DNA from: Candidatus Obscuribacteraceae bacterium | Lineage (GTDB): Bacteria > Cyanobacteriota > Vampirovibrionia > Obscuribacterales > Obscuribacteraceae | NCBI GenBank assembly: GCA_044226015.1 | Contig: JBGAHS010000009.1 | Span: 192,001 to 256,000, forward strand | DNA: 64,000 nt | Reading direction: 5' to 3' | Part shown: positions 257 to 33,153 of the stretch, piece after piece | How the letters are laid out: the number at the start of each line of letters is the position of its first letter | How positions within the stretch are numbered: position 1 is the first letter of the stretch | The notes under the pieces: generated by a model | Database searches by the model: none | What the model saw: the letters and a program-made list of their open reading frames with translations, nothing else | What the model was told of the DNA's origin: nothing | Position numbers and translations under genes: made by a program

Positions 257-637
257 ATGGCTCGCATAGCGGGTGTTGACCTGCCAAGAAACAAAAAAGT
301 CTACATAGCGCTTCGCTACCTATATGGTGTCGGACCTACTGGTGCTGCAAAAATTTGCGAAAAGCTGAGTATTGCAGACCACAAGCGTGTACAAGACCTC
401 ACAGAAGATGAAGTCAACCGTATTCGTGAAGAGATAGACAAGAACTGGCAGGTGGAGGGTGACCTCCGTCGTGTCGAAGGTCTCAATGTTAAGAGACTTA
501 TCGAGATCAACTGCTTCCGTGGTCAACGTCACCGCAAGGGTCTACCGACCCGCGGTCAGAGAACGAAGACCAATGCTCGTACAAGACGTGGACGCAAGCG
601 CGTCACCGTTGCCAACAAAAAAGTCGCTACCAAGTAG
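257..637 (+). CDS. rpsM: 30S ribosomal protein S13
   Basis: [13 protein letters not shown]...[22 protein letters not shown] at 248-252. Confidence 0.99.
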
Positions 638-796
638 CACTAGTCGAGTTGATTGCGATTGCAGGATCGCAATCAACGACGAGTTTAAAAGGCATAACGA
701 CGATTACGGATCAAGTATTAGGGAAACGAGCCTGTGGCTAAACCCAGGCAGTATGCGGAGTAATCCGCACAACGTAAAAAAGGACCAAAGACAGAA

Positions 797-1189
797 ATGG
801 CTAAAGCACCAAAAGCAAGAGCTAAGAAAAAAGACCGCCGCGTAGTACTTGAAGGCGTTGTACATATTCAATCAACCTTCAATAACACCATTGTCAGTGC
901 CACAGACCCGGTCGGAGCGGTTATCGCATGGGCCTCGGCAGGTACGGTAGGATTCAAGGGCGCCAAGAAAGGCACTCCGTTTGCTGCTCAGCAAGCTGCA
1001 GAATCCGTAGCAAAGCGTTCGATGGACCAGGGCATGCGCAAGTGTGAAGTGCTGGTTAAGGGACCGGGAGCCGGACGTGAAACGGCAATTCGTGCTCTTC
1101 AATCATCGGGGCTTGAGATTACGTTGATCCGTGACTGCACACCGATTCCACATAACGGTTGCCGTCCACCAAAGAGACGTCGCGTGTAA
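797..1189 (+). CDS. rpsK: 30S ribosomal protein S11
   Basis: [40 protein letters not shown]. Confidence 0.99.
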
Positions 1190-1244
1190 TACACGGAACC
1201 AATTGCAGTAAGCATTGGAACCGCATTTTTGAGGAGATACGGCA

Positions 1245-1868
1245 TTGGCCAGGTATTGTGATTCAGTATGCAAATTGTGCCGCAACGAAGGCACCAAACT
1301 CTTTTTGAAGGGCTCACGTTGCTATAGCAGCAAGTGCGCCATCGAGCGCCGTCGCTACCCTTCAGGTCAGCACGGTCAGGAAAGAAAGAAGCAATCCGAG
1401 TATGCGATTCAGCTTCGTGAGAAACAGAAAGTTCGTCGTGGTTATGGCGTTCTTGAAAGACAATTCTCACGTTATTTCGAATCTGCATCGCGTCAGAAAG
1501 CAGTTCCAACAGGTCTGCGTTTGCTTCAGCTTCTTGAAGTACGTCTCGACAACATCGTCCACCGTTCTGGCATGGTGCCATCGCGCGCTCAAGCCAGACA
1601 GCTCATTTTGCACGGTCACGTTACCGTCGATGGAAATGTTGTCACCGTTCCTTCTCTCCAGTTGAAGGTTAATCAAGTCGTTTCTGTTAAAGACAAGAGC
1701 AAGTCTCTCGTCAAAAAGCTGATCGCCGACAATCCTTCTGCAGGCGCACCGAGATGGGTGTCAGCTGACCTTGAAAATCTCAAAGTGTCAGTTCAACAGC
1801 TTCCAGCTCGTGAAGATTTAGACCAAACAATTAAAGAAGCGCTCATAGTTGAATTCTATTCGCGTTAA
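1245..1868 (+). CDS. rpsD: 30S ribosomal protein S4 (Cys-containing zinc-binding form)
   Basis: MARY...CKLCRNEG..LFLKGSRC...KC, QLREKQK, LEVRLDNIV, IVEFYSR; TTG start after GAGGAG. Confidence 0.98.
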   Translation: MARYCDSVCKLCRNEGTKLFLKGSRCYSSKCAIERRRYPSGQHGQERKKQSEYAIQLREKQKVRRGYGVLERQFSRYFESASRQKAVPTGLRLLQLLEVRLDNIVHRSGMVPSRAQARQLILHGHVTVDGNVVTVPSLQLKVNQVVSVKDKSKSLVKKLIADNPSAGAPRWVSADLENLKVSVQQLPAREDLDQTIKEALIVEFYSR

Positions 1869-1901
1869 TTCATAACAAGCCTTCAAGGAGAAACTGGACG
1901 A

Positions 1902-2858
1902 ATGTACGGAGTAAGCATCGAACCGCTCAAGATCAAGTGCCTGGAAAACAAAACCGGCACCGATGGATCTATTTATGGCAAGTTCGTAATTGAGCCACTG
2001 GAAAGAGGATATGGCACCACTGTGGGCAACTCGTTGCGCAGAGTATTGCTGAGCTCTCTTGAAGGTGCATCTGTTACTGCAGTAAGAATGGAAGGTGTCA
2101 CCCACGAATTCACCACCATTCCGGGTGTTGTTGAAGATGTAATCGACATCATGCTCAACTTGAAAGGTCTTGTTGTTAAGTCATTTAGCAACGACCCACA
2201 ATATCTGCATATCGATTTGCAGCGCTCAGGTCCGGTCACCGGCCGCGATATCATCTGCCCAGCAGACGTGACAATCATCAATCCTGATTGGCAAATCTGC
2301 ACATTGGCTGAAGATGGTCGCATCCGCGCTGAAATCACAGTAGAGCGTGGTCGCGGTTATGTACCGGCTGATCAACACAGCCACTACAAGCAAGCTATCG
2401 ACGTATTGCCAATCGACGCAGTATTCATGCCGATTCGCAAAGTCAGCTATAACGTCGAGCCGACCCGCGTTGGCGAGTCAACCGACTACGACAAACTGAC
2501 AATCGACCTCTGGAGCAATGGCTCAATCGACGCAACCGAAGCAATCAGCCAGGCTGCTCGTCAATTGATCGACCACCTCGTTCCAATCGCTGAACTTTCC
2601 GGAAGACCAGTAGTACCGGTTGCACCACAACCAACACAGTCTGATGGCAAGCATCATTCAATCTCTATCGAAGAATTGGAACTCTCAGTAAGAGCTTATA
2701 ACTGCTTGAAGAGAGCCAATATTCATTCACTCGGTGAGCTTCTCAAACTAAGTTACGATGATTTGATGAACATCAAAAACTTCGGTAAGAAGTCTGCCGA
2801 CGAAGTAATCGAACGTCTCAGACAATTTGGTTTGGGTCTTTCAGACACCGCCAAATAA
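1902..2858 (+). CDS. rpoA: RNA polymerase subunit alpha
   Basis: EPLERGYGTTVGNSLRRVLLSS, HEFTTIPGVVEDV, alpha-CTD LELSVRAYNCLKRANI...KNFGKKS. Confidence 0.99.
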   Translation: MYGVSIEPLKIKCLENKTGTDGSIYGKFVIEPLERGYGTTVGNSLRRVLLSSLEGASVTAVRMEGVTHEFTTIPGVVEDVIDIMLNLKGLVVKSFSNDPQYLHIDLQRSGPVTGRDIICPADVTIINPDWQICTLAEDGRIRAEITVERGRGYVPADQHSHYKQAIDVLPIDAVFMPIRKVSYNVEPTRVGESTDYDKLTIDLWSNGSIDATEAISQAARQLIDHLVPIAELSGRPVVPVAPQPTQSDGKHHSISIEELELSVRAYNCLKRANIHSLGELLKLSYDDLMNIKNFGKKSADEVIERLRQFGLGLSDTAK

Positions 2859-2879
2859 GCACTAAAAGGAATTGGAATT

Positions 2880-3329
2880 ATGCGTCACCGCAAACCAGGA
2901 AATCGTCTAAGCCGCCCGCAAGACCAGAACAATGCAATTCTTCGCGCTCTGGCTACCGAGCTTCTTCGTCACGATGAAATCGTCACCACTTTGTCAAAAG
3001 CAAAAGCTGTTCGCAGCCATGCAGAAAAGATGATTACGCTTGCTAAGCATGGTCGTCTGGCTGACAAAGAAACGCTCTACAAAAACGCTAAGAGTGAAGA
3101 TGCTGCAGTTGCAAGCGAAGCTTCAAAAGCAATTGCTAAGCATGTTCATAAACGTCGTCAAATGCAAGCTTTCATCTATGACAAAGATGTGGTCAGCCGC
3201 ACTTTTGATGAAATCGCTCCGCGTTATGAAAAGCGTAACGGTGGCTACACACGTATCGTGAAGACTCACTTCCGTCGTGGTGATGCTGCTCCGATGGCTC
3301 TTATTCAGTTGGTTGAAGCTGACAAATAG
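2880..3329 (+). CDS. rplQ: 50S ribosomal protein L17 with internal insertion
   Basis: MRHRK..., IVTTLSKAK, RNGGYTRIVK..RRGDAAPMALIQLV. Confidence 0.98.
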   Translation: MRHRKPGNRLSRPQDQNNAILRALATELLRHDEIVTTLSKAKAVRSHAEKMITLAKHGRLADKETLYKNAKSEDAAVASEASKAIAKHVHKRRQMQAFIYDKDVVSRTFDEIAPRYEKRNGGYTRIVKTHFRRGDAAPMALIQLVEADK

Positions 3330-3351
3330 TCAGTTCTGACCTATTCGATTT

Positions 3352-3376
3352 GGGCAGCCGCCTGGCTGCCCTTTTT
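3352..3376 (+). terminator. Intrinsic terminator after rplQ
   Basis: GGGCAGCC-gcct-GGCTGCCC followed by TTTTT. Confidence 0.8.
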
Positions 3377-3526
3377 GTTATGGGACCTGAATCGGTTGGA
3401 ATCCGATCTGAGTGAATCTGTCCTTTTCTTTTGTATGTCGTTTCTTGTTTTGACAGTCAAGAATTCGCCAGATCCGAAGTCGCCAGGATGGCGGGGCCCA
3501 GACCGAACTGAACGAAGAAGATGTAG

Positions 3527-4459
3527 ATGAGTACGAGAAGAATAGCCGTAAAAATGGAGTACGCTGGCGAAAAGTTCAGCGGCTCTCAAATGCAGGCCAA
3601 CGCTCGTACTGTGCAGGAAGATTTTGAGAAAGCTCTAAACGTACTTTTTCGCACTGGAAGCACTCGAAGCATCAAGGCGACCTTATGTGGACGAACAGAT
3701 GCCGGCGTCAATGCAAGAGGGCAGGTCGCTCATTTTGACCTTGATGACGAGTTTCTTTTGCGTTGTTTTTCAGTACTGGCGGCAGATGGCAAACAGTTGG
3801 CTCATAGTGGACGTGCCAACATGGTAATTTCGCTTGATGAGCTTGAGAAGCCAATTGTGGATTCAGAAGTCTTGCGAAGAATGTGTTGGGCACTTAACGG
3901 CATTCTGGAAAAAGACATCAGTATTGTCGAGGCTCAGGTCGTTCCGGACAAATTCAACGCCAGATTTACTGCGGTTAAGAGAACATATTTGTATCGTATC
4001 CTTAATAGAGAGCAAAGGACGGCGATAGGTCACAAAGAGCAACATTTTATTCCGTTTCAGCTCGATGTTGATGCAATGAAAGTGGCTGCTGAAGCGCTTC
4101 TCGGCAAGCATGACTTCAGCGCATTTAAGTCTTCTAATGCTGATTTGCGAACCACAATCTGCCGCGTTGAGCGCGCTGAATTATTGAAGAAAGGTGAATC
4201 TGAGCTTGAATTCTGGATTTCAGCCAATCACTTCGTTTACAATATGGTGCGCATTATTGTCGGGACGTTAATAGACGTTGGACTCGGCAAACGCGCACCG
4301 TCGGTCATCGCTGATGCTTTGGCTGCGAAGGACAGGCAATTTGCCGGACCCACCGCACCGCCTTGGGGGCTCTGTCTTTATTCGGTAGATTACCCGGCTG
4401 AGTACAAATTGTTTGAGAGAGAGACCAGAGAAGGTTCTCTAATTAGTCAGGAGAAATGA
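3527..4459 (+). CDS. truA: tRNA pseudouridine(38-40) synthase
   Basis: GRTDAGV catalytic motif, FNARF.A..RTY.Y, GKHDFSAF, FVYNMVRIIVGTL, GPTAPPWGL. Confidence 0.97.
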   Translation: MSTRRIAVKMEYAGEKFSGSQMQANARTVQEDFEKALNVLFRTGSTRSIKATLCGRTDAGVNARGQVAHFDLDDEFLLRCFSVLAADGKQLAHSGRANMVISLDELEKPIVDSEVLRRMCWALNGILEKDISIVEAQVVPDKFNARFTAVKRTYLYRILNREQRTAIGHKEQHFIPFQLDVDAMKVAAEALLGKHDFSAFKSSNADLRTTICRVERAELLKKGESELEFWISANHFVYNMVRIIVGTLIDVGLGKRAPSVIADALAAKDRQFAGPTAPPWGLCLYSVDYPAEYKLFERETREGSLISQEK

Positions 4460-4462
4460 GTC

Positions 4463-4894
4463 GTGAAAACCACAGTGCCTAAGGTAGAAGATGTCCAGCG
4501 CGACTGGTACGTCGTTGACGCAGAAGGCCAGACATTGGGCAGGCTGGCGGTGCAAGTTGCCAACGTTCTTCGTGGCAAGCATAAGCCCATCTTCACTCCG
4601 CACATGGATTGTGGCGATTTCGTAGTTATCGTCAACGCTGAAAAAATCCAGCTTAGCGGAAACAAAGAAACCCAGAAGCTTTATCGTCACCACTCTGGAT
4701 ATCCAGGTGGTTTCAAAATCGAAACTGCAAAAGCATTGAGAGAGCGTCGCCCAGATCAATTGGTTGAGCGCGCTGTCAAAGGCATGCTCCCACACACCAG
4801 ATTGGGCGCTCGCCAATTCACCAAATTGAAAGTTTATGTTGGCGGCGAGCATCCACATGCTGCTCAAAACCCAAAGGCTTTGGAAATCAAATAG
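4463..4894 (+). CDS. rplM: 50S ribosomal protein L13
   Basis: [48 protein letters not shown] start. Confidence 0.99.
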
Positions 4895-4941
4895 TCAATT
4901 AGTGTAGCCAGCAAGGCAGGAAGAAAAGGAAAGATATTGCG

Positions 4942-5340
4942 ATGACAAGCGTAATTCAGTATTACGGAACCGGAAGAAGAAAAACAGCGACCGCTCGCGT
5001 TCGTCTCGTTCCAGGTACCGGCAAGGTCACAATCAACAACAGAACCGTTGAAGATTATGTTGGCAATCGTCCAGGTCTCGCTCGTGAAATCGGATTGCCA
5101 TTTGAAATCGCTGATGCTCAGGGACGTTTTGACGTAATCGTCAACGTTTGTGGCGGCGGAATTTCCGGACAGGTCGGTGCGATTCGTCACGGTATCTCCA
5201 GAGCCCTTGCAGAAGCAGCTCCTCAGAACCGTCCATTGCTCCGCACAATTGACTTACTCACTCGTGACCCACGCGTCAAAGAGCGTAAGAAATATGGTCG
5301 TAAGCGTGCTCGTAAGCGTTTCCAATTCAGCAAGCGCTAA
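4942..5340 (+). CDS. rpsI: 30S ribosomal protein S9
   Basis: YYGTGRRKTATARV, GGGISGQ, LTRDPRVKERKKYG..ARKRFQFSKR. Confidence 0.99.
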   Translation: MTSVIQYYGTGRRKTATARVRLVPGTGKVTINNRTVEDYVGNRPGLAREIGLPFEIADAQGRFDVIVNVCGGGISGQVGAIRHGISRALAEAAPQNRPLLRTIDLLTRDPRVKERKKYGRKRARKRFQFSKR

Positions 5341-8535: not shown

Positions 8536-9327
8536 CTAGTAGTTGGCTTCTTGACCCTGGTCTTCTACGTTGTTTGCTGTCTGAGCAAAGAGAATGTAAG
8601 TGCCCATACCACCAGGATTCTTTAGTGGTTTTCCGTCGAAGCCTGCGCCCCAAACGTATATATTTCCTTGACCATCACCGTAACCATATATGGTGCCAGG
8701 TTGTCCTGTCCAATTTAGAGGCGGGCTCTTGCGATATTCATCAAGTGTTGTGGGATTGATACTTTGATCCATCGCAAGTTGGATGCGATGCGCGTTGTCT
8801 GCTGTGAGCTCAGCCGTCCATTCATCATTTGCGACAGGTCCAGAGGTGTTTGGAGTGCCATCTGAATTGTAGTAGTACGACAGACCAGGAGACAGACCGT
8901 TAAGTTCACCATCCTGCACAGCACCAATTGCATTTGCGTAAGGATTTGAACCAACGAGTTCAGTCAACTGCACTTCCGCGGCTCTTTCTATGGTGCCTGA
9001 ACTTCCATAGTTTCCTGGAAAACGGTTTTGATTGCGCAGGCAGAACTCTTGTAACCAGCCCGCGACTTTCTGAATTTGTCGGCGCATTTCGTCGTCGTCG
9101 CTTTGAAGTAGAGCTTTCATTTGCTCTCTTTGAGCGGCTGCGCTCGCGCCGCTATTTTTCTTGGTGTAGCTTTGAGCGTTCGAACTGAAATCTGAGAAAA
9201 GCGGTTTGTCAGACTCAGAAGGGAAAAGGCTGTTGCCGAAAAGTTCATCAGCGTGAACCGCATTTGCTGAGCACAAAAGAAACACTGAACTCAGAATCGA
9301 TTGAGCGATGCCAGCTCTTTTCATCAT
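8536..9327 (-). CDS. Exported hypothetical protein (possible pilin-like head)
   Basis: Sec-type signal ending AVHA; AGGAG RBS; 263-aa ORF. Confidence 0.7.
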   Translation of the reverse strand: MMKRAGIAQSILSSVFLLCSANAVHADELFGNSLFPSESDKPLFSDFSSNAQSYTKKNSGASAAAQREQMKALLQSDDDEMRRQIQKVAGWLQEFCLRNQNRFPGNYGSSGTIERAAEVQLTELVGSNPYANAIGAVQDGELNGLSPGLSYYYNSDGTPNTSGPVANDEWTAELTADNAHRIQLAMDQSINPTTLDEYRKSPPLNWTGQPGTIYGYGDGQGNIYVWGAGFDGKPLKNPGGMGTYILFAQTANNVEDQGQEANY

Positions 9328-9389: not shown

Positions 9390-10394
9390 TTAAGGCCAAT
9401 CAACGGCGAACAGGAACTTGCGAGCCTGAGGTACAGCTTGATCTTGACTAGTGCCTGCTGAGGCTCGCAATACAAAAGCATAGCGAGGCGCATCCCAGGG
9501 GAAATACCCGCAAATCCAGGACTGGAAACTACTGCCATGAGGAGTTGTTCCGGTTTTGATCGCTAACTTCAATTTATTTTCAGGGTCTAATTTTTTCCCG
9601 GTGCCTTGCCTGCTGGCAATTTGCATTCCTTGTTCTAAAACGTGCCAGGTATGGCTGTCCATCAGTATTTCAAAAGGCTTAGCCTCCGCATTCGGGTTTT
9701 CGGCACTGTGCAAAAATGGCACTTTGCCTCTTGTCGCTACAAGGGCAGCCACCCGCATCAGTTGCAAGGCGCTTGGTCTCACACTGTCAGTCAGCCCCAG
9801 CGCCAGCAGCTCAGGCACAGCATTTTTGTCTGCTGCCTGAAACTTGCCAGACCCGAAGTCTGCAACCGGTGTGTTTAAGCCGAATTTTTCAGCGAATTCT
9901 AAAATTGTATTTTTGCTGACTTTACTGGCGAAATGAGCAAAGTAAACGTTGCAGGAGAGTCCGAGTGCATGCTGCATATCCACTATGCCGTGAGCAAATT
10001 GACATTTGATTGTCTGCTTATGAGCTTTGTAAACGCCTCTGCACTCGAATTTCTCGTCTGCATGAATGGCGCGAGTCTCCAATAAAGCCGAAGCTGTGAT
10101 CAGTTTCATTATTGAGCCTGGCATACCGATCGGAACGTCATGACCCGTGGGGCAGCCAATCTGACCATTATGCAAACTGGTCCAGAAGAATTTACCACTG
10201 CTGTCGTTGCGGGACTCGGCTGCAGGCGGCTCTACTTCCGATTCTACGATTGAGCCCAGACCAAAGAATGAGCGCAGAAACTGTCTGCGTCCCATCTCTG
10301 ACGATTTTTCTTTGCCTTCTGCCATAGTCTTGATTTCGACTTTACGTGATGTGTTTGTTTTTTTACCTGTTCTTTTCTTTAGCTTGACTGTCAC
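9390..10394 (-). CDS. Stand-alone penicillin-binding transpeptidase-domain protein with twin-arginine-like motif
   Basis: SxxK (PGSIMK), SxN (LSCNVYF), KTG (AIKTGT), SWICGYFP..PRYA; GRRQFL near the N-terminus. Start may be ATG 10325. Confidence 0.88.
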   Translation of the reverse strand: MTVKLKKRTGKKTNTSRKVEIKTMAEGKEKSSEMGRRQFLRSFFGLGSIVESEVEPPAAESRNDSSGKFFWTSLHNGQIGCPTGHDVPIGMPGSIMKLITASALLETRAIHADEKFECRGVYKAHKQTIKCQFAHGIVDMQHALGLSCNVYFAHFASKVSKNTILEFAEKFGLNTPVADFGSGKFQAADKNAVPELLALGLTDSVRPSALQLMRVAALVATRGKVPFLHSAENPNAEAKPFEILMDSHTWHVLEQGMQIASRQGTGKKLDPENKLKLAIKTGTTPHGSSFQSWICGYFPWDAPRYAFVLRASAGTSQDQAVPQARKFLFAVDWP

Positions 10395-10465
10395 CTAATT
10401 CTCTTATCAGAGAATCTACTTAGAAGCAGGAATTTCTTTATTCCAATAAGTCTATAAGGTCTGCC

Positions 10466-11221
10466 ATGATTATTGCTGTTGCTGAGCTAATCTCAATGAA
10501 GAATGTGAATCGCCAATCACTGCAATTCTTACTGGCTGCCATCTTGCTGCTGCTGCTTCTCTGCGTTAAGCCGGCGCTTGCGCTTGAGACCATCTGCCAG
10601 ACCAAAAACGACCCTTCCTTTGCTCGAATAACTATTTCAAAATCCGACTATTTGAAGCATGGTCAGTCGTTGAATCAATATGTTGGACTGAAGGAGATAG
10701 CAAAGAGAACGATGTATCGCTATTTCGGCAAAGAAATGCCAGGGCAGAGCAACAAGGCTGATCTAAATGAGCCCATGTTAAGCCTGGTCAATAAGCTGAA
10801 CGTCGAAAAGAAGTTCCTTAGCCCTGCAGGAGTCTTTGTAACTCTGAGCAAGGCTGGTAAGACTCGAGCTTGTTGGGGCTCTATTCACCCGAGAGAGAGT
10901 ACTGCGGCAAGAGAAACCGTTCTTTCAACACTCGGAGCCCTAAATAAAGAATATCGCTTCAAACGCATAACTACTAACGAACTTAAAACTCTGAAGGTTC
11001 AAGTCACAGTAGTTAGAGATCTCTCAGCGGTGACAGATATCAAATCTGTAAACCCGCTAACAGATGGAGTTATGGTACGCTCAGGCGGTCGCGGTGGAGT
11101 AATTCTCCCCGGCGAAGCAGTCGATGCGTATTACGAAATGGTGCTTGCCAAACTGAAGGCTGGTATTAAGCCCGATGAACCGTGTCAAATCTACAAGATA
11201 AAGGCTGAAATATATGACTAA
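10466..11221 (+). CDS. AMMECR1-domain protein with signal peptide
   Basis: GVFVTLSKAGKTRACWG (cf. LRGCIG), YRFKRIT..EL..LKVQVTV, DGVMVRSGGRGGVILP, LKAGI; hydrophobic leader ending ALA. Start may be ATG 10496. Confidence 0.85.
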   Translation: MIIAVAELISMKNVNRQSLQFLLAAILLLLLLCVKPALALETICQTKNDPSFARITISKSDYLKHGQSLNQYVGLKEIAKRTMYRYFGKEMPGQSNKADLNEPMLSLVNKLNVEKKFLSPAGVFVTLSKAGKTRACWGSIHPRESTAARETVLSTLGALNKEYRFKRITTNELKTLKVQVTVVRDLSAVTDIKSVNPLTDGVMVRSGGRGGVILPGEAVDAYYEMVLAKLKAGIKPDEPCQIYKIKAEIYD

Positions 11222-14200
11222 TCCAGTCAAATCGCTAAACACAAATCCGCTTTTGTCGTGGCAGTTTTTTCTGCTCAAAATTCTCTTGTTCGGATTGGCT
11301 GCAGTGCTGATTTCCAAGCCTGTTGGTTCCATATCGGGACGCATCGCGATGGAACAAGAAGGGTTCAATCTTTACTCTTACAATTTGAGAGACCACCATG
11401 TATATGCAACCGCTATCGGACCTCGTGGTGGCGATGAGCAAGAGCGCGGGGTCTGGGTTGATGGAGATGGGCGATTTGAAATCAGTCAATTACCTGTTGG
11501 TGAATATCAGCTGAAAGTACGCGTGCCTGGGTTCTCGACTACATATGAAAGTGGCTATTTTGTCGAAGAAGGCAAAGCTACTGAGCTAAATGAACCAATC
11601 ATGCTGCAAATAGCTAATCCTAGCGTTAGCGTTGGAAGCAGCTCACGAGTGTTTACAAGCAAGGAGAAACCAAGATTTTGGGCTAACGTTCAGAGTGCTA
11701 CGAAGATTGATGTAAAACTCTACAAGAAAGATTTGCTTTCAATTCTCGGCACGGAAACTGAGAAGCATATGGGTGTTGAAGTTAGCTCTGATTTGAGTTT
11801 GTACAAGCCTTACGGAGAAGAGCACAAAGTCCAAAATGTGTTTGAGAAGGATAAGCTGGTCAAGACATGGTCGAGAACCCCTCGCAGCGACGCTGAGGAT
11901 TCTTCCCACGAAACTTTTCAGTGCGAGCAACCCTTACCGGCGGGTGATTACTTTGCTGTAGTCGAAGCTTCCAATATTAAGAATGAGTCTGACCGTAGCA
12001 TTATCTGGTTCTCAGTGACAGATATTGGACTAATAGTGAAGCAGGACTACAGCAAGACTGTAGTTCGAGCAATCGATTTGAACACTCTTAAACCCATGCC
12101 TGATGTGGCAATTCAGGTGAGACAGCGAGATGCGGGAACGAGCGACAGCGGAGGCGAGGGCGACTCGGCTGCTCCAGCTGCTGCAAAAGCGAAGAGCAAG
12201 GGAACAGTCTTGCTGTCGAAAGATGGTATCAAAACTGGTGCTGACGGGTTTGCTGAGTTAGCAGTTGGTTCTGCAATTGCCAGCGGTTCCACCAACCTCT
12301 TATTCTGTGGGTTTAAGGGTGAGCAACATGCTTTCGGTGGCATGTCGATGTACAGAAATAGCAACGATGATCACCAGCTCTACTTCTATACTGATAGACC
12401 GATTTATCGTCTAGGTCAGACTGTTTATTTCCGCGGAATTTGTCGAAATCTTAAAGGCGAAGGCTTGAAGAACCCGGGAGAAATGAGTCTTGATTTAAGT
12501 CTGGAAGATCCCGATAACACATCTATATGGACTGGAAAAGTTAAAACCAGCAAGTTTGGTACTTTCCACGGAGTTCTGGAAATTCCCAGTGACGGAAAAA
12601 CTGGTGCTTACCAGGTCAACATAACCTACCCTGATGGTTCTAGCGATTACGAGAGAATCGAAATTGATGAGTATCGCAAGCCTGAATACAAAGTGGATGT
12701 AACTCCGCTTGAGACGCGAGTAAATCAAGGCGGCAAGGCCAAAGCACGCATCAAAGCTACGTACTACTTCGGTGCGCCTGTTGCCAATGCGAAAGTCAAA
12801 TATTCTATCTATTCATCAAACGATTGGATGAACAGATATCGAATCAAAGAGCGCCCCGATTATTACAGCTATTTCGATGATTGGGATTCTGGTAGCAGTG
12901 ACTACTACTACGGGGGAGACTTCGTAGAAGAAGGCACCGTGCAAACCGATGCTAGCGGCGAAGCTATAGTTGAATTCAATACTCGTGAAGGCAGTAAAGA
13001 TCTTGACGCTGTTTTTGACAGCGGTTTTGAAGATAAGAAGTACAAAATCGATGTTGAAGTCACCGACATAAGCAGATTGAGTGTACTCAATTCAGGTTTT
13101 GTCGAAGCGACGCCTGGTGACTTCGTTCTCTTCGTCGAACCTGACAGCTACGTGGCTAAGGTCGGCGAGAAAATCAAAGCGAACGTCCGAGCCGTTTCCT
13201 ATGACGGCCAGCCAATTGCCAATCGCAAAGTGAAAATGCAATTGCTGCGAAGACTTTGGGATCGCAACGAGCACTACTATCGTGGAAACGAGAAGTATGA
13301 AGAGCTTGAAGTCACAACAGACAAAGACGGTAAAGCCACTGTCAGTTTCAACACCGTCGCAAAATGGGCAACTGACACGTATTACATCGTTGGCTCCGCT
13401 AAAGATGATGGCAACAGACTTATCGCTTCTTCCAACAGCATCTGGGTTGTTAGCGACAGCTACCCCTACTCGCTGAGCGATTCCGAATCGCAGAAAGAAC
13501 CGCTGACAGTCAAGTTGGATAAGGAAGTTTATAAGCCAGGTGAAACTGTGCGTGCGATGATTTCAGCTCCTGTAACAGGAAAAGAAGGCGCACAGGCAAT
13601 CGTGGCAGTAGAGGGCTCTCAAATTTACAACTACAGAGCTGTAGACCTGAAAGCAAGCGCGACCCTGGTCGAAATTCCTGTCGACAAAAAGTACGCTCCT
13701 AACGTGCATTTGACGGTGACTTTCGTGAGTAAGAAACGCCAGTTCTTCAACGATAGTCAAATGATCAAGGTTTCGCCTCAGTCTAATTTCTTGACTGTGA
13801 GTGTCGCTACCGATAAGCCCAAATATCATCCCGGAGACATGGCTACCTACACTCTCAAAGCTGTGGATGCCGATAACAAGCCAGCTCCAAATGTTGAATT
13901 GGCTATGGGAGTTGTTGACGAGAGTATTTATGCAATTCGACCAGAGACTGCTGGCGATATTCGCAAATTCTTTTATAAGCAGAGAAACAACAATGTAATT
14001 ACGATGTGCTCTTTCCCTGAAGAGTATTCGGGTGGTCCCAACAAGATTGAACCTCGCGTTCGCAAAGACTTTAAGGATACGGCTGCCTGGTTCCCCTCTC
14101 TGATTACAAATGATAAGGGTATAGTGACTGCTAAGTTTAAGATGCCTGATAATTTGACTACATGGCGTGCCACTGTTCGCGGTGTCAACATGGAGACGCA

Positions 14201-16301
14201 GGTTGGCTCAGTTATCCAAAAAGTGGTTAGCACTCAAGACCTGATTGTGCGCCTGGCTCTACCGCGCTTCTACTCTCAGGGAGACGAAGCCGAGGTGAGT
14301 GCAATAGTTCACAACTACTCTGACATAAAGCAAAAGATCAAGGTTGATTTGAAGCTTTCACCTGAATTCCAATTTATGGATAAGAGCGCGCCTCAGTCGG
14401 TTGACCTTGAGCCAGAAAAGGTCGCCCGCGTCAGCTGGCGAGCCAGAGTCATGAACTCAGGCACCGGACTGATTTCCGTGAAGGCTATCGGCCAGACGGC
14501 CGGTGACGCAATGGAAATGAAATTGCCAATCCGACCGCTCGGTGTTCCAATATTTGTGAGTAAGAGTGGTGTCATCAATTCCGATGACGAGAGTATAGAA
14601 TTGCCTCTGACTTTACCGTCTGATGCAGCTCCTGGGTCCGTCGACCTGACCGTACACATGGCACCATCTGCATTGTCCCCGGTGCTCGGTAACTTCAGCT
14701 CTTTGATCGATTACCCCTATGGGTGTACTGAGCAGACGATGAGCAGGCTGATGCCGGCTGTAGTTGCCATTAAGATGAACAAGAAGCTTGGCGTGCCGCT
14801 CGCTGCTGCTGATCTGAAAAAGTTCAAGGCAGTTTACGACATGTCTATGACCAAGCTCGATGAATATCAGCACGCCGACGGCGGCTGGGGCTGGTGGGTT
14901 GACGACAAGAGCAATCCATATCTTACTGCGCTGGTTCTTGAAGGATACAAGCTTCTGGAAGATGCTGGCTATCCAGTGGATAAAGAGCGCAAGAAGAATG
15001 GATTGAATTGGCTTGCAAAATCTACCGTTGAGTTGCAAAAACAACTATCAGATCCCCAACTGGTTAAAGTTTGGTGGCATGAAAATGAATCTATGGTTGA
15101 CCTGGCGAAGGCTACCTATGTTCAAAGTCTGCATGGTGTGAAGTCGGCGCCGAAGCTGGTGCAGTGGGTCTGCAGTTCTGAACTACTAGACAAACAAACA
15201 CCTGAGTCACTCGCTTATTACACCCTTGCCTTCAAAGCTAGTGGATATGCTGATGCGGCAAAGAAAATGTACGATCGACTGATTTATCTATCTAATTCAG
15301 AAGACAGTGCATTTGGCTCTCTTGTTAATTGGGAGCGCAACGATGACATGTATCGCAAGTTCGGTGTTGCATCAAATAACTACTACTACTATTACAGTTA
15401 TAGATTCACCGGAGTTGAGTCATCGGCTCTCGCTCTCAGAGCATGCATTGCAATGGAGCCTGGTTCCGAAAGAATCGAAGGCATCAAGTCTTGGATTCTT
15501 ACTGAACGCGGTAAGGACGGATGGGGCAACACCAAGACCACAGCTGAAGTCTTCAAATCGTTCATGGAAGATGAGCTGGTAAATGCGAAGAATGTACCCT
15601 GCGATTTCAAAACGGAAATCGCTAGCGCGGATGGACAGGCTGCTGACCTGGGAGTTGCATCGTTCAACCAGAAGTCGCTGTTTGCCCCAGAACAGGTAAT
15701 TAAGTTAAATCTCAAGACAAACCAGAAGGCTAAACTCCATAAGTCTGGCTCAGGACGTTTGTACTGGAGTTGCGTACTTAAGTACTATAAAAAGTTGTCT
15801 CCTAGCGGCATAAACACTGCAAATGTGACGCTGCCATCAACACCAACGAAGCTTGCCATGCATCGAAGCTTCAAGAGGCTGATTGCTCACTATGACAGCA
15901 GTAACAATGTCAGCTTTACAGAAGAGCCCATTAATGGCAAAGTCAAAGCAGGAGAAACTATTCTGATGACATTGTCTATTGACTCACCAATCAGTGTTCC
16001 CTACACACTTTGCGAAATGCCATTGCCGAGCGGTGCTGAAGTTGTAAAAGACAATGCCAAAGAAGAAATAAGTTCTCGTGGCAATTATTCAGCCGTCAGA
16101 TGGTGGGACCATCAAGACATTATGGATGACCATATAGCCAATTTCTCGGGATGGTATCGCGATGGACACTCCGAGTTGAGAACCATGATTCGAATGGAAC
16201 TTCCCGGAAAATTCCAGATGAATCCAGCAATAATCGAAGGCATGTATACCAACAATGTGCATGGATATTCCGAGGCCCAAGAAATCGAGGTCGTCGAGTA
16301 A
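11214..16301 (+). CDS. Bacterial alpha-2-macroglobulin with intact thioester motif
   Basis: YFYTDRPIYRLGQTV, EYRKPE, VDESIY, RKDFKDTAAW, MPDNLTTWR, LPRF, YPYGCTEQT, QHADGGWGWW, WGNTKTTA, LPSGAE; N-terminal TM anchor. Confidence 0.96.
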   Translation: MTNPVKSLNTNPLLSWQFFLLKILLFGLAAVLISKPVGSISGRIAMEQEGFNLYSYNLRDHHVYATAIGPRGGDEQERGVWVDGDGRFEISQLPVGEYQLKVRVPGFSTTYESGYFVEEGKATELNEPIMLQIANPSVSVGSSSRVFTSKEKPRFWANVQSATKIDVKLYKKDLLSILGTETEKHMGVEVSSDLSLYKPYGEEHKVQNVFEKDKLVKTWSRTPRSDAEDSSHETFQCEQPLPAGDYFAVVEASNIKNESDRSIIWFSVTDIGLIVKQDYSKTVVRAIDLNTLKPMPDVAIQVRQRDAGTSDSGGEGDSAAPAAAKAKSKGTVLLSKDGIKTGADGFAELAVGSAIASGSTNLLFCGFKGEQHAFGGMSMYRNSNDDHQLYFYTDRPIYRLGQTVYFRGICRNLKGEGLKNPGEMSLDLSLEDPDNTSIWTGKVKTSKFGTFHGVLEIPSDGKTGAYQVNITYPDGSSDYERIEIDEYRKPEYKVDVTPLETRVNQGGKAKARIKATYYFGAPVANAKVKYSIYSSNDWMNRYRIKERPDYYSYFDDWDSGSSDYYYGGDFVEEGTVQTDASGEAIVEFNTREGSKDLDAVFDSGFEDKKYKIDVEVTDISRLSVLNSGFVEATPGDFVLFVEPDSYVAKVGEKIKANVRAVSYDGQPIANRKVKMQLLRRLWDRNEHYYRGNEKYEELEVTTDKDGKATVSFNTVAKWATDTYYIVGSAKDDGNRLIASSNSIWVVSDSYPYSLSDSESQKEPLTVKLDKEVYKPGETVRAMISAPVTGKEGAQAIVAVEGSQIYNYRAVDLKASATLVEIPVDKKYAPNVHLTVTFVSKKRQFFNDSQMIKVSPQSNFLTVSVATDKPKYHPGDMATYTLKAVDADNKPAPNVELAMGVVDESIYAIRPETAGDIRKFFYKQRNNNVITMCSFPEEYSGGPNKIEPRVRKDFKDTAAWFPSLITNDKGIVTAKFKMPDNLTTWRATVRGVNMETQVGSVIQKVVSTQDLIVRLALPRFYSQGDEAEVSAIVHNYSDIKQKIKVDLKLSPEFQFMDKSAPQSVDLEPEKVARVSWRARVMNSGTGLISVKAIGQTAGDAMEMKLPIRPLGVPIFVSKSGVINSDDESIELPLTLPSDAAPGSVDLTVHMAPSALSPVLGNFSSLIDYPYGCTEQTMSRLMPAVVAIKMNKKLGVPLAAADLKKFKAVYDMSMTKLDEYQHADGGWGWWVDDKSNPYLTALVLEGYKLLEDAGYPVDKERKKNGLNWLAKSTVELQKQLSDPQLVKVWWHENESMVDLAKATYVQSLHGVKSAPKLVQWVCSSELLDKQTPESLAYYTLAFKASGYADAAKKMYDRLIYLSNSEDSAFGSLVNWERNDDMYRKFGVASNNYYYYYSYRFTGVESSALALRACIAMEPGSERIEGIKSWILTERGKDGWGNTKTTAEVFKSFMEDELVNAKNVPCDFKTEIASADGQAADLGVASFNQKSLFAPEQVIKLNLKTNQKAKLHKSGSGRLYWSCVLKYYKKLSPSGINTANVTLPSTPTKLAMHRSFKRLIAHYDSSNNVSFTEEPINGKVKAGETILMTLSIDSPISVPYTLCEMPLPSGAEVVKDNAKEEISSRGNYSAVRWWDHQDIMDDHIANFSGWYRDGHSELRTMIRMELPGKFQMNPAIIEGMYTNNVHGYSEAQEIEVVE

Positions 16302-16993
16302 TGAAAAGACGAAAGATAATTAGCTGGACGGCGCTCATAGCTTTACCGCTAAGTCTGCTCTCGTTTTTCGTGTTGTCTCATCCGTTTCGCGATGAGATTG
16401 CAAGTAGAACCTTTGGGTTGAGTTATCTTTCGCCCACGCAGGTCAATAACATTTCCATTGCGGCAAATGCACTCAATGGCTACGTTCTAGAGCCTGGACA
16501 GGTATTCTCCTTTAACCGCATTGTCGGACCGAGAACCGATTCTAGAGGCTATCGCTCTGCCAGGTCCTATCTGGGTAATGAGAGTCCTGCTACCTTCGGT
16601 GGTGGCATCTGCCTTCTTTCATCAGGTTTGTATCAGGACGCTTTGATCGCCGGGCTAAAGATTGAAGAGCGTCTGCCTCACTTGCGCACAATCTCAAGTG
16701 TAGAACCGGGACTAGATGCGACTGTGTGGTATGGGAATGCTGATCTGAAAATTCGCAATACAACAGCCCACCCTCTGCAAATAAAAGCAGAAGTGCGCGA
16801 GCACAATTTGTACGTCAAGTTCATGTCCGAAAACGCAGCAGATATGCCAGTCAAGGCTGATCTGAGTACCTTCGTTGCTCGCAGAACAAAAAATGAGTTG
16901 CTTGTTGAGGTATTTCGAAATGTGGGGGGGAAGCGTTGCTTTGTTTCCCGAGATCACTATCAGCTGAGTTCTGCGCCCGGCACAAGAAGCTGA
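16301..16993 (+). CDS. VanW-family protein with N-terminal membrane anchor
   Basis: NISIAANALNG.VL.PG.VFSFN.IVGPRT..RGY, GGGICLLSSGLY, GLDATV..G.ADL.IRN; ATG overlaps the A2M stop (TAATG). Confidence 0.92.
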   Translation: MKRRKIISWTALIALPLSLLSFFVLSHPFRDEIASRTFGLSYLSPTQVNNISIAANALNGYVLEPGQVFSFNRIVGPRTDSRGYRSARSYLGNESPATFGGGICLLSSGLYQDALIAGLKIEERLPHLRTISSVEPGLDATVWYGNADLKIRNTTAHPLQIKAEVREHNLYVKFMSENAADMPVKADLSTFVARRTKNELLVEVFRNVGGKRCFVSRDHYQLSSAPGTRS

Positions 16994-21493: not shown

Positions 21494-24100
21494 ATGAGCG
21501 CAATAATTTCGTCGGAAGTTTCTACAAGAGTAAATAAGCCATGGTCGTTTCAGGAGGCTCTTAACGCATTTCTAGCCTCCCCTACCGATGTTTACCTCAA
21601 TTTCGTATTGATGCAATTGGCCAAACGAGATGGAAGAGAAAGAGAGGCGGCTGGCATTATCGAATCTCGCTTGAATGTAATTCGGCGAAGCCAGCCACGT
21701 CGAGGGGATCTAAGGCAAGTGAATCTGCTTTCACTGCTTTCTGGACGGGTGGGCGTTCAAGAGTGTCTACAAATTGAGGCGATGAGAGAACACTACGGAT
21801 TTGCTGACCCCTCGCCGCTGGCTCAGGGTGCTTTCGCTTCGAATGGAACCGCTGCAGACAGATTGTCTCCAAATCAGGATTTCTCGCCGCCCGCCTCAGA
21901 AAAGCGGATTCCCTTCGCTTCTTTGGCTGTTCCGGATCAAAAGAGCCATCCCTGGTCTGAAATGCTGGCTGCGTCGACGCCTGCACAAAATCCTTCAGCC
22001 TTGTCCAGGCTTATGCCTGCGGATTTCCTGTTTGCTGAATCAAGGTCTGCAAAACGTTTATTAGAAACGATGGAGACAATCTGTGAGTGGGGCGACACAA
22101 TCTCTCGCAGTTTGCAAAAGAAATCGAATGCAAACAAGACAGTCATGCGGGCTGCAAACAAGTTGGGGATAGATCGCTTTCTGGAGCGAATCGAGATTCT
22201 TGACTCTGTTGAATCCGCTGTTGCCAGCTCAGACCTTTTTCTCAGTGAGGGCACGGACATTTCAGTTTTGTTGCGGTTTAAAGCAGATGATTCCATGTCT
22301 GTTTATCTTGCGGATTTGTCTTCGAAGCGTCATGTTCGTGCTCATAGGTATCGTGAGCACTCCTACGATGAATTGATTCATGAAGGTTTTACAAGTTTTT
22401 CCGCCAAACTAGATGAGCAAACATTTTTGTGCAGTAATTCGCAAAAAGCAGCTCATAAGATTCTCGATGCTTGCATCTCGAAAGTGAGCCTCGGCAATTC
22501 CGATGAATTCAAATACATAAGAACTCTGATGCCAGAGTCAGAGTCTGCCGACGAAGTGCTTTTGTATTTTTCGGACCCCTTCATTCATCATATTGTGAGC
22601 CCTAAATTGCGTGTGACAGAACACAGACGAATCAGTTGCCTGGCAAATCTACGTCTTTTCGAATATTCCGTGCTTTTATTCAGAACGCAGTTTGGAAGAA
22701 ACCCCGTTTCGCTGGCAGAAATAGCTGAACGAGGCTGTTTACCTGCAGCTGCCAATCAGGGACGGCTCTGCTGCCCATGTTCTGGTACATATTCGCTAAT
22801 CGAAGAAAAGCAGGACGAACTAGCGTTTCCGAAATGCTCTTCGCATGGCAGTGCGAGCCACTTGATTCCCTGTATCGATTTTGACTATGGCGACGCCACA
22901 GAAGCTGAAGCTGCAGAATATACTCAATTCGTCAATGAATACAACCGCTATTGGCAAAATTATTTTGACCCTATCGGAGTACGATTTGCATACGACAGAG
23001 CAAAAAATGCAAAAACAGTTGAGACTATCATTTTGCCATTGATGCAAAACAGCATTTATTCGGGATTGGCTTCCGTAGTGAGAAACGCAAGTCCGGCGAA
23101 TTTAGAAGACCCTGTGACTCCGAACTCAAGCATCTTCTCTGCTGCATTCCGCTTCGATGCAGATGTGGTCAAAGAGGCGCTGCATGCCAACCAGCAAGCT
23201 TCCATGTATAAGAGCGTTCTCGATTCTCAAGTCGAAGCCTTGAATTATCGCAAGTTCCTCATTAATGGAGTTGATAAGCAAATAGGTTTTCACGTTATTG
23301 ATTCTGAGCCGCCTTTCACGCTCGATTTTTCCAAGGTGCTGGGCTTCGCTGTCGGTTCAATGTCTACCAATAACAATCGCGCCTTTGGTTCAAACCCACT
23401 TTTCCTGGCTGGAGCATTCATTCTCACAGCGATAAACTCACCTGTCTATCTGTCAATTCCTGTGCTCGATGAAGCCATAGTGGATAAGTTCTGTGCCGAC
23501 CTGTCTTCTCTTCTAGTTAAGGTCTGTCATCACAACCAGGTATTTGGAACCGACCCCTACTCATATAAGCTGGATGATGGAACTCAAGCTTACTGTGTCA
23601 CCATTTCGCTTTTGGCTGCCACCTTCCGCTTACATTGGGCGCGGGTTGGCTCTCGACTGGTCATCGCAAGTAAGCAATCTGTATTGACTCAGCTCTCTGA
23701 GGCTCTCCATGACAGTAGTAAGCGTGACTCAATAAACTATTTGTCTCCTCAGCTTTGCGCGCATGCTGGTGTTCGCTTGCGGCAGGAAAATTGGAATCGC
23801 ATCAAAGCTGATCTTGATGCTGCCGCTGCGGAAAACAATCGAGCAATATGCTTTAGCAATCAGGCTCCTCTGGGCAATCAGCTTCGTGCCGGTTTGTCTA
23901 TCAAGCAGATTGACAGGTATGTGTGTCCTTGTGGTGGCACTTACGAGTTGGACGGAAATATAGTTAAATGCTCAATTCACAATAACCCGTTGAAACCTGA
24001 ACAGGGCGTCAAGCATAGCAACGAGCGAGTAAGAGCTTTCAGTGCACAATTAGCTTTTCTCGAAGACGGTCTACACGCCAAGTTGATAATGGATTTGTAA
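21494..24100 (+). CDS. Large hypothetical protein with two CPCxGTY...CSxH motifs
   Basis: 868-aa ORF with AGGTGA RBS; no family recognised. Confidence 0.75.
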   Translation: MSAIISSEVSTRVNKPWSFQEALNAFLASPTDVYLNFVLMQLAKRDGREREAAGIIESRLNVIRRSQPRRGDLRQVNLLSLLSGRVGVQECLQIEAMREHYGFADPSPLAQGAFASNGTAADRLSPNQDFSPPASEKRIPFASLAVPDQKSHPWSEMLAASTPAQNPSALSRLMPADFLFAESRSAKRLLETMETICEWGDTISRSLQKKSNANKTVMRAANKLGIDRFLERIEILDSVESAVASSDLFLSEGTDISVLLRFKADDSMSVYLADLSSKRHVRAHRYREHSYDELIHEGFTSFSAKLDEQTFLCSNSQKAAHKILDACISKVSLGNSDEFKYIRTLMPESESADEVLLYFSDPFIHHIVSPKLRVTEHRRISCLANLRLFEYSVLLFRTQFGRNPVSLAEIAERGCLPAAANQGRLCCPCSGTYSLIEEKQDELAFPKCSSHGSASHLIPCIDFDYGDATEAEAAEYTQFVNEYNRYWQNYFDPIGVRFAYDRAKNAKTVETIILPLMQNSIYSGLASVVRNASPANLEDPVTPNSSIFSAAFRFDADVVKEALHANQQASMYKSVLDSQVEALNYRKFLINGVDKQIGFHVIDSEPPFTLDFSKVLGFAVGSMSTNNNRAFGSNPLFLAGAFILTAINSPVYLSIPVLDEAIVDKFCADLSSLLVKVCHHNQVFGTDPYSYKLDDGTQAYCVTISLLAATFRLHWARVGSRLVIASKQSVLTQLSEALHDSSKRDSINYLSPQLCAHAGVRLRQENWNRIKADLDAAAAENNRAICFSNQAPLGNQLRAGLSIKQIDRYVCPCGGTYELDGNIVKCSIHNNPLKPEQGVKHSNERVRAFSAQLAFLEDGLHAKLIMDL

Positions 24101-31166: not shown

Positions 31167-32147
31167 CTATCTAGCTTGGCGGAGCTGCTTTTGAGGCTCG
31201 TTTATCCTCTGGGTATGCTGATTGGCTGGACCACGAAAAACCAGAGCTTTCTGGTCGGCTGGGCTGATGCTCACGATAGAGCCAGAGTTGAAGTTTATAA
31301 AGTCAGATTCGATTCCGTCGCTGAAAATGGTTCCTTCTGACGGCATGCTGGACTCGATTGTTAAACTGTTAGATTGGGAAATGAACCCAGAAACTATATT
31401 TGACTCTGAATGCCTGCTGAAAAAGGGCTCCCTTACGACAAATATGAGATTTGAGCTGTTCCAGGCGAGTTTAATTGGGCTGATGCGACTTCCTCCCGCA
31501 AATTCCGTCAATCCGCTAGCCATGTTGAATAGGGAAGAAAGCCAGCCCGTCGACCCTGCTCCTGTAGAAACGATGATTCCACTGGAGGACTGATTCTCGG
31601 ATTCACTCTGGTATCGAATGCGATATCGTGCTGATATGTGTGTTTTGGCTCCGATAAATAAGTCGTTGAAGGCAAGGAGTTTTTGTCCATCGTTCAGGCG
31701 AGCCTCGGCTAGTGTAACTGCAGAGTACTCGGCAGTGTTATTCAGAACGCAGTGCAGATCTGAGCGAACCTTATTAGGGCTTGAGGACAAGAGAACTCCA
31801 TCAATTCTGCTTGTGTCTGGATTTACTCCGATGATCGGAAGCCCTGTGGCGTATTTTGCTACATTGGCAAGAAGTCCGTCCTGACCAACGACCAAAACGA
31901 TGTCCTTTTCTGTGAATATGAAATTGGAGATGTACTTTCTGTCCACGAATTGAATCTGGAGCCCTATATCGATTTGCGTGTGGATAGTTTCTAGGCTTCG
32001 TTGATATGCGTCATCTTCTTCCTGGTACTCGTTGAAATTTGCGCCGGAGTGCTTGATGTAGAATGCCGCTTGAGCTTTTGTGTTGAATCTCGCGATGAGC
32101 TCTTGCATTCGCGTTTCACGACTTATCACGACAATTTTCTCGAACAT
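31167..32147 (-). CDS. NAD kinase-like (ATP-NAD/diacylglycerol kinase fold) protein
   Basis: VVGQDG (variant of GGDG), PIIGVN, AFND, QSSSGIIVSTGAGSTGW, FVVREP, SDG; start ATG 32147 with AGGAG RBS. Confidence 0.85.
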   Translation of the reverse strand: MFEKIVVISRETRMQELIARFNTKAQAAFYIKHSGANFNEYQEEDDAYQRSLETIHTQIDIGLQIQFVDRKYISNFIFTEKDIVLVVGQDGLLANVAKYATGLPIIGVNPDTSRIDGVLLSSSPNKVRSDLHCVLNNTAEYSAVTLAEARLNDGQKLLAFNDLFIGAKTHISARYRIRYQSESENQSSSGIIVSTGAGSTGWLSSLFNMASGLTEFAGGSRISPIKLAWNSSNLIFVVREPFFSRHSESNIVSGFISQSNSLTIESSMPSEGTIFSDGIESDFINFNSGSIVSISPADQKALVFRGPANQHTQRINEPQKQLRQAR

Positions 32148-32154
32148 GATGCTC

Positions 32155-33153
32155 CTACTCTCTTGAGTTTTTGGTAGAAGGATTCGAAGGGGCATTGAGA
32201 AGTGTTTGTAGCAAATCTGGCGTCAAATTTAGCGTTCCGATTTTTGAAGCATTTTCTGCCAGCTCTTGAAACGCGAGACTCATAATCATGCGCGAATCAC
32301 CGCCATTTTTGCCGGCCATGGCAATAAGCGTGCGCCAGTCGACATCCCGAACTGGTTTAAGCGTTGATTCGAGTGCATAAGCTCGAGAGTCAGCTTCTTT
32401 GCGATCATTTTCGGTTTTCTTCGAAATTAAAGCCTCCCGTTGTTCTTCGATTGCTATGTCAGCAGCCATGCGGGTTTCGCGGATCTCTCGCTTTTTGGTT
32501 TCAACCGCTTTTTCTGTGTTTAACTCACTTTCCTTGATGCGTCGTTCTTCTTCAACGGCTGCGTTCCTCCTTAAATAGATGGCTTGATCTGATTGCTGGA
32601 GAATTCTTTCCCTGGTTTCAGATTCCAGAGCCCTGGCAGTTTCCTTCGTTGGCGAGAGGTTGAGAATCGCCAGATCAAGTATTTGAACACCGAGAATGAC
32701 AAGTACATCTGATTTCTTTAGTTCTTCGAGAATACCGGAGACCACCATATGCGGTGCCTGGAGAATTTCGCGCAGAATGAGTGGGCGAATTATGGACTGT
32801 GAAACAACTTGCGTCGTATTTACCAGTCGAGTCTCAAGTTGTTGAATCGGGCTGTCGCCGCTAGCCTTATATCTTCCTTTCTCGTCAACAGAGAAGTCCA
32901 GCATTTGGGCAGCCTGTTCAGGGTTACTTATTTTGTAAGTGATTTGTCCCTGTACGCTTATGGTTTGAAAGTCGGCTGTTGGCTCGTTGAATATAAATGG
33001 GACTACCTGACTTACCAAAGGTATTTCAGATACAGAAGAAATAGGGGCGAAATACCAGAAGTTAAGCCCGGCACCTTGCTTACTTATTTTTCCTGACTCG
33101 TGAAGGATGACGTGCCTGGTAGGTGGTGATTTCTTATATTCAATTCCCAACAT
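32155..33153 (-). CDS. SPFH/band-7 domain protein
   Basis: TADFQTISVQGQITYKI, LGVQILDLAI, C-terminal coiled coil RRNAAVEEERRIKESELNTE, IGTLNLTPDLL; GAGG RBS. Confidence 0.88.
   Translation of the reverse strand: MLGIEYKKSPPTRHVILHESGKISKQGAGLNFWYFAPISSVSEIPLVSQVVPFIFNEPTADFQTISVQGQITYKISNPEQAAQMLDFSVDEKGRYKASGDSPIQQLETRLVNTTQVVSQSIIRPLILREILQAPHMVVSGILEELKKSDVLVILGVQILDLAILNLSPTKETARALESETRERILQQSDQAIYLRRNAAVEEERRIKESELNTEKAVETKKREIRETRMAADIAIEEQREALISKKTENDRKEADSRAYALESTLKPVRDVDWRTLIAMAGKNGGDSRMIMSLAFQELAENASKIGTLNLTPDLLQTLLNAPSNPSTKNSRE

Follow-up and report, generated by a model that had tools for sequence, protein, structure and literature searches.

A thioester alpha-2-macroglobulin locus with exported AMMECR1 and VanW genes is apparently an undescribed variant of a known operon type

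Introduction

Two settings have been described for bacterial alpha-2-macroglobulins (A2Ms), proteins with few firmly established targets. Bait cleavage in these proteins exposes the thioester. The host studied here, Candidatus Obscuribacteraceae bacterium, is an uncultured, non-photosynthetic relative of the cyanobacteria in which an A2M gene adjoins three others at 9390..16993, encoding an AMMECR1-family protein, a VanW-domain protein and a penicillin-binding-protein (PBP) transpeptidase. Which kind of A2M system do these genes form, and what might it do? Coordinates refer throughout to the window, the whole stretch of 64,000 nucleotides of contig JBGAHS010000009.1 that was analysed (G000:C3:192001-256000 in the numbering used for this genome). 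An earlier reading of the letters alone (the original prediction) had proposed a different A2M system, possibly for protease trapping and wall repair with the other three proteins as partners, in a combination that it did not recognise as described.

Results and discussion

Layout of the locus

The four genes and their main features are as follows.

9390..10325, minus strand: stand-alone class B-like PBP transpeptidase (Pfam PF00905, Transpeptidase, E 1e-23, sole domain)
10394, minus strand: alternative GTG start of the transpeptidase
10326..10465: spacer common to the divergent transpeptidase and AMMECR1 genes (from the sequence)
10466..11221, plus strand: AMMECR1-family protein with predicted signal peptide (Pfam PF01871, AMMECR1, E 8e-23)
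11214..16301, plus strand: thioester A2M, 1695 aa (Pfam MG2/A2M_BRD/A2M/TED/bMG10 with an N-terminal CarboxypepD_reg)
14013..14063, plus strand: short, conserved A2M bait-position loop, residues 934-950 (alignment to E. coli YfhM and YfaS)
14724..14735, plus strand: A2M thioester motif CTEQ, residues 1171-1174 (from the sequence)
16301..16993, plus strand: minimal, membrane-anchored VanW-domain protein, a predicted L,D-transpeptidase (Pfam PF04294, VanW, E 1e-41)

The AMMECR1 and A2M reading frames overlap by ATGACTAA at 11214-11221, and the A2M/VanW junction is a TAATG overlap at 16299-16303; the original prediction had named both, the first as an overlap of 8 nt, and both are present in the sequence. 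The divergent spacer measures 71 nt from the GTG at 10394 or 140 nt from the ATG at 10325, the latter start agreeing with those of relatives. Promoter matches, in a scan that included this spacer, occur at chance level (10 versus 11.9), as do terminator matches (10 versus 10.0). Export or anchor signals had been claimed for AMMECR1, A2M and VanW, and hydrophobicity, the one measure by which export was judged, agrees for all three: the best 15-residue Kyte-Doolittle means are 3.0, 2.7 and 2.5, respectively, the A2M N-terminus being a putative anchor or signal. The end of an rpoA/truA region, with small ORFs that we take to be rplM and rpsI, lies 4 kb upstream of the locus (257-5340), a core-chromosome setting.

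Conservation of the gene set

We compared 36 relative loci, made up of 10 of 12 gathered by A2M (two duplicates dropped) and 26 of 28 others (two canonical AMMECR1 loci dropped). Eleven of the 12 closest A2M loci are labelled Obscuribacterales or Melainabacteria. AMMECR1 lies immediately 5′ of A2M at 32/36 loci (two cut by contig ends, two misses), A2M is followed by VanW at 28/36 (six cut, two misses), and the divergent transpeptidase is present at 28/36 (four cut, four misses). The arrangement of the four genes is not due to chance, and the neighbourhood check bears out the proposed set: the genes co-occur, with order and catalytic residues kept across the class and beyond it. Two further genes recur, one with a SpoIID domain behind the transpeptidase and one for a 480-aa membrane protein behind VanW, each at 19/36 loci. 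The set has six members, two of which lie outside the window, on another contig of this genome (C11:812662 and C11:880008).

Twenty loci from other classes of the phylum, picked by AMMECR1 score, divide into 16 with an RxCWG motif and four with the canonical RGCIG; the partner genes are absent from the latter. AMMECR1, A2M and VanW are contiguous at 12 of the 16 RxCWG loci, three more stop at a contig edge inside A2M, and in the remaining genome, G297, the genes are scattered. At two loci (L084, L090) the order runs membrane protein, transpeptidase, SpoIID, AMMECR1, A2M, VanW, all on one strand; two others (L086, L088) share this order with inserted genes. The one-strand order in other classes indicates that the divergent layout is lineage-specific.

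Among 300 sampled genomes of the phylum, 19 hold an A2M match at E<=1e-100, a cut picked after the match list had been seen. VanW and the membrane protein are present in 19/19 of these genomes and AMMECR1 (E<=1e-20) in 18/19, against overall totals of 30 genomes for VanW and 22 for the membrane protein; kin genomes are non-independent, and these counts are given without a P value. Named homologues of the exported AMMECR1 include records from Sericytochromatia, Thermostichus, Synechococcus sp. Nb3U1, a Myxococcales and a Bacillota. With P0157 as seed, 23 metagenome loci came up, all with short or canonical (RGC[IV]G) AMMECR1 and none with the partners, and a plasmid search with AMMECR1 gave no match. 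One alignment (A3) contained a non-homologous row, L034:137-1447 (14% identity).

Relation to known A2M operons

The transpeptidase profile resembles residues 56-130 of E. coli YfaQ (hhalign probability 87%, E 4e-6) and the SpoIID profile residues 253-414 (probability 95%, E 2e-8). YfaQ is described as a transpeptidase joined to SpoIID (bioRxiv 10.1101/2025.02.11.637708). The two genes thus correspond to a split YfaQ, and the system is best seen as a yfa/mag A2M operon in variant form, with a thioester; the YfaQ/MagE-like pair that marks type II operons is present, by profile, as two genes, linked at the 19 loci with SpoIID. The original prediction is partly supported: the four genes do go together, but the transpeptidase is no stranger to the yfa/mag genes, since with SpoIID it matches the YfaQ halves, and the set does not amount to a new kind of A2M system. 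The A2M profile likewise ranks YfaS over YfhM (E 5e-77 versus 2e-65); its PDB matches are ECAM and Sa-A2M, and identity to YfhM is ~21%.

In Meiothermus, a related A2M that has kept its thioester is immediately preceded by DUF1175 (MagC/YfaT); the present set is therefore not alone in placing a thioester A2M among yfa-like genes. By gene order, AMMECR1 is the putative occupant of the slot that DUF1175 holds in E. coli and Meiothermus; DUF1175 is reported to be a peptidoglycan-binding but inactive member of NlpC/P60 (PMC10318531). DUF2135, DUF2138 and DUF1175 were found neither in the 37 window ORFs nor in the 37 locus proteins scanned.

Type II operons (E. coli yfaA-yfaT-yfaS-yfaQ-yfaP; P. aeruginosa magABCDEF) share with the present set an envelope operon around a lipobox-free A2M, the YfaQ/MagE-like transpeptidase and SpoIID, an exported small protein before the A2M and a membrane protein. 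Here, however, the thioester is intact, whereas YfaS lacks CxEQ; YfaQ is split in two genes; AMMECR1 stands in for DUF1175 and a pyrophosphatase-fold membrane protein for DUF2138; VanW is added, the bait is shorter, and the scanned window ORFs include no DUF2135 gene. Type I systems (E. coli yfhM-pbpC; Salmonella Sa-A2M) share the CxEQ thioester and the coupling to a wall-building enzyme, but the present set has no lipobox, no adjacent pbpC and no glycosyltransferase. By analogy, the system would work like mag/yfa, yet it fits neither the type I nor the type II definition. No description joining a bacterial A2M with AMMECR1 or VanW appears in the literature among the matches listed, in keeping with the claim of novelty for the combination, and we regard the set as a conserved variant, apparently not described before, of an operon type already known. 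It represents a further A2M context, in which a type I thioester meets type II-like partners and a newly characterised family of cross-linking enzymes.

Partner proteins

The transpeptidase (310 aa) carries SIMK, SCN and KTG motifs and no further domain, as expected of the divergent, transpeptidase-only PBP with SxxK/SxN/KTG motifs first proposed. Zinc-binding PBPs are described as combining SxxK, SxN and KTG with a Cys/Asp-Cys/Asp-His-Cys tetrad (PMC9334274); residues C94, C107, H111 and C124 (numbered from the Ala at 10322) match this tetrad and form a predicted zinc site. In the window's class, S70/K73, SCN and the tetrad are conserved in 26/26 sequences and KTG in 25/26, with one gap. The predicted model (pLDDT 89) finds its best PDB folds in C. 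difficile PBP3, SpoVD and PBP2s, its domain starting at residue 44 after a disordered leader; an N-terminal membrane helix and a pedestal domain are absent from the model of the 310-aa protein. The likeness to the Zn2+-binding class B PBPs C. difficile PBP3 and SpoVD thus covers the fold and a Cys-Cys-His-Cys tetrad that includes the SxN cysteine, and the differences are the missing helix and pedestal, a twin-arginine leader and the loss of the SxN asparagine in other classes. The leader motif, RRQFL, was read against the Tat consensus; RRx[FL][ILM] recurs in 29/29 sequences, mostly with a weak hydrophobic stretch, and the transpeptidase may be exported metal-loaded through Tat. SxN has become SCS in 7/7 transpeptidases from other classes, and its YfaQ counterpart is SCG, with KTW for KTG; this loss of the asparagine, as in YfaQ, makes cross-linking activity doubtful for the family. 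Against PBP_1c the transpeptidase scores 11 bits (cut-off 494).

VanW had been taken as an uncharacterised envelope protein, a view overtaken by its description as a Cys-His-Asp L,D-transpeptidase family that makes 3-3 cross-links, in which only 3/7 foreign VanW proteins are reported active (PMC11348318). The window VanW matches PF04294 and has the triad C104, H127 and D139, conserved in 29/29 and 32/32 sequences of two alignments, so 3-3 cross-linking is predicted. C. difficile Ldt4 and Ldt5 have the same VanW domain, Cys-His-Asp triad and N-terminal membrane helix; the protein described here differs in having no PG4/G5 domains, a diderm host and a gene coupled to A2M.

SpoIID belongs to the lytic transglycosylases; it cleaves glycan strands and relies on a catalytic Glu. 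The membrane protein has no Pfam family, and its model resembles membrane pyrophosphatases (Z 23.2, rmsd 3.8, 436 aligned residues, 12% identity), the next unrelated fold match being at Z 8.3. At L078:1477-3952 (G000:C11:879k-882k) it is accompanied by a divergent 295-aa partner of no family, adjacent in 15 loci. In the window, the place of SpoIID behind the transpeptidase is taken by a gene for an exported protein of no Pfam family (8536-9327, minus strand), with weak Atlas likeness to pseudopilin-like clusters. We did not count it among the core genes, since only this genome and five same-genus loci have it after the transpeptidase, and its Atlas leads are weak.

AMMECR1 has been linked to a human syndrome. 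For the family as a whole, the source that defines its RGChG and DxRa motifs and a putative catalytic Cys offers only a predicted RNA-modifying role (PMC2034487). In the window protein these motifs take variant forms, RACWG (134-138) and EYRF (EYR, 162-164), and there is an LPGE motif; the Arg, Cys and Gly of the first and the Arg of the second are invariant, R, C, W and G of RACWG in 28/28 sequences, and the putative catalytic Cys is thereby conserved throughout the alignment. The stretch ahead of the motif is 72-233 residues long, compared with 49-72 in 24 canonical homologues, which lack the N-terminal extension, and 30/34 exported-type proteins have a hydrophobic stretch of at least 2.0. 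The neighbours are A2M and the transpeptidase, with the Memo/radical-SAM neighbourhood absent; the score against TIGR04335 is 62.6 bits, below the cut-off of 99, and canonical proteins form a separate branch of the FastTree phylogeny, which carries long-branch warnings, as does the A2M tree. AmmeMemoRadiSam protein A thus shares the fold family, the conserved Arg-x-Cys-x-Gly and the Arg of DxRa, whereas the present protein has a signal peptide, the RACWG, EYR and LPGE motifs, other neighbours and its own branch. Twenty-one of 132 AMMECR1 representatives (P0294-P0425) are short, with RxCMG, an LPGE-like motif and a hydrophobic leader, which suggests a second exported sub-branch.

In three genomes SpoIID and AMMECR1 are encoded as a single continuous frame, with no signal between the domains in G093 and a relic signal-like linker in G041 and G111; a fusion also occurs in one of the 132 representatives (P0416). 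The three genomic fusions may go back to a single event, the tree giving no sign of independent origins. This fusion of the exported branch to a glycan-cutting domain points towards muropeptides as an assayable substrate, and the six-gene set likely gives the AMMECR1 family a testable job at the wall. The homologues in Synechococcus sp. Nb3U1 and Thermostichus mean that a culturable host probably exists.

Thioester, bait and proposed function

The thioester motif PYGC[TV]EQT is kept in 30/30 A2M orthologues. The first Cys of the protein is residue 237, which leaves no lipobox. We located the bait by aligning the protein with YfhM and YfaS of E. coli, setting aside for bait conservation those A2Ms that had been gathered by bait-region likeness, as circular. 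For reference, the MagD bait is given as ANRSERG (PMC5764988), with its YfaS counterpart aligned over residues 944-948, and ECAM is reported as disordered at 923-942 (PMC4498604). The bait-holding segment spans 65-67 residues in 22/22 orthologues, 12-17 fewer than in YfhM (79) and YfaS (82). A complex prediction for the AMMECR1 core with A2M residues 375-1112, the only part of A2M in the run, scored 0.00, a value that speaks neither for nor against an interaction.

The genome holds two further A2Ms. The second (L043:6968-14324, G000:C1; 2120 aa, CSEQ) has a long bait, in a segment of 141 residues, and the next gene, with a weak YkuD match (E 3e-5), may encode a wall enzyme. The third (L044:8782-16987, G000:C4; 1411 aa, CFEQ) has a very short segment of 46 residues and precedes chlorite dismutase and haem peroxidase genes.

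We consider it reasonably likely that this six-gene yfa/mag variant serves in defence and repair of the cell wall in the periplasm, the A2M trapping through its thioester while its partners excise and re-cross-link damaged peptidoglycan. Tethered to the membrane, the A2M would bind attacking enzymes covalently; SpoIID would open the glycan; the transpeptidase domain, with its predicted Zn site and probable Tat export, would trim or sense stem peptides; VanW would re-link tetrapeptides without new lipid II; the exported AMMECR1, in the MagC/YfaT slot, would bind or process SpoIID products; and the membrane protein would anchor the set, as MagB does. This reading builds on the A2M-PBP1c hypothesis, restated in PMC5764988, and on the report that MagD protects against wall-targeting T6SS effectors (PMC12663445). 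The conserved order, co-inheritance, YfaQ homology, the higher rank of YfaS over YfhM, the DUF1175 gene beside the Meiothermus A2M and the SpoIID::AMMECR1 fusions support it; the unlinked SpoIID and membrane protein genes here, and the scattered genes of G297 and G038, speak against it, as do the short conserved bait, the SxN replacement in other classes and the 3/7 share of active foreign VanW proteins.

A broad trap fits poorly with a conserved bait shorter than those of E. coli YfhM and YfaS, and the A2M could instead be a covalent patch or tether dedicated to one task and triggered from within, with a bait loop that some specific partner cuts or uses. VanW, acting via Lys944, or the thioester, reacting with free wall amines, would then attach the protein to peptidoglycan. 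Attachment of proteins to the wall by L,D-transpeptidases is known from systems other than VanW. The uniform segment length would suit such a role, as would residues 934-953, which fall in the top 1% of 20-residue windows by conservation: F934, G941, K944 and R950 are invariant in the loop, K944 in 22/22 and 33/33 orthologues of two alignments. Low-complexity baits in DUF1175-linked Meiothermus and Deinococcus A2Ms are, by eye, ~20-25 residues longer, and for MagD, cleavage in vivo is reported to require its partners (PMC3735191, PMC5764988). Shortness is, however, not unique, the segment of the third A2M being shorter still; a comparable aromatic-x-GG-D word (RFGGD) in YfhM means that the loop may be conserved for structural reasons, and a bait-loop lysine is equally a site for a trypsin-like protease. 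We judge this alternative unlikely.

Most partners are wall enzymes, and the set might also be read as a housekeeping machine for wall remodelling in growth, division or a developmental stage, in which the A2M would be a scaffold and defence would play no part. In the A2M tree, genomes cluster with others of their family, as under vertical inheritance, and deletion of E. coli yfaQ is reported to give wider cells without any attacker (bioRxiv 10.1101/2025.02.11.637708). Against such a role stand the thioester, kept in 30/30 orthologues, and the distribution of the set, for which most of the 300 genomes gave no match: A2M, VanW and the membrane protein were detected in 0/129 genomes of family f6, and neither A2M nor VanW was found in G011, which is 96% complete. 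We hold a purely housekeeping role to be quite improbable. That the genes are neighbours by history with no joint function is very improbable, for although they are scattered in G297 and G038 and single members are missing from four loci (L033, L038, L051, L060), all six are kept in both scattered genomes, so that co-presence survives the scattering and co-inheritance weakens the idea, as do overlapping stop and start codons, gene fusions and an order kept across classes.

Beyond the defence-and-repair reading lies a bolder and doubtful proposal, that the exported AMMECR1 is a Cys-dependent peptidoglycan enzyme acting with SpoIID while the A2M, with its short loop and invariant lysine, answers to a specific trigger and becomes covalently bound to the wall, through either VanW or the A2M thioester. 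If true, this would amount to complement-like covalent patching of the wall, possibly as old as the cyanobacterial phylum, and would provide the first substrate class for the AMMECR1 family.

Elsewhere in the window, four long ORFs (21494-24100, 48727-50976, 62060-63604 and 31167-32195) have no Pfam match, and a gene at 55567-59166 (minus strand) that adjoins a TPR gene encodes a 1199-aa protein with weak LysM and C-terminal DUF7718 matches.
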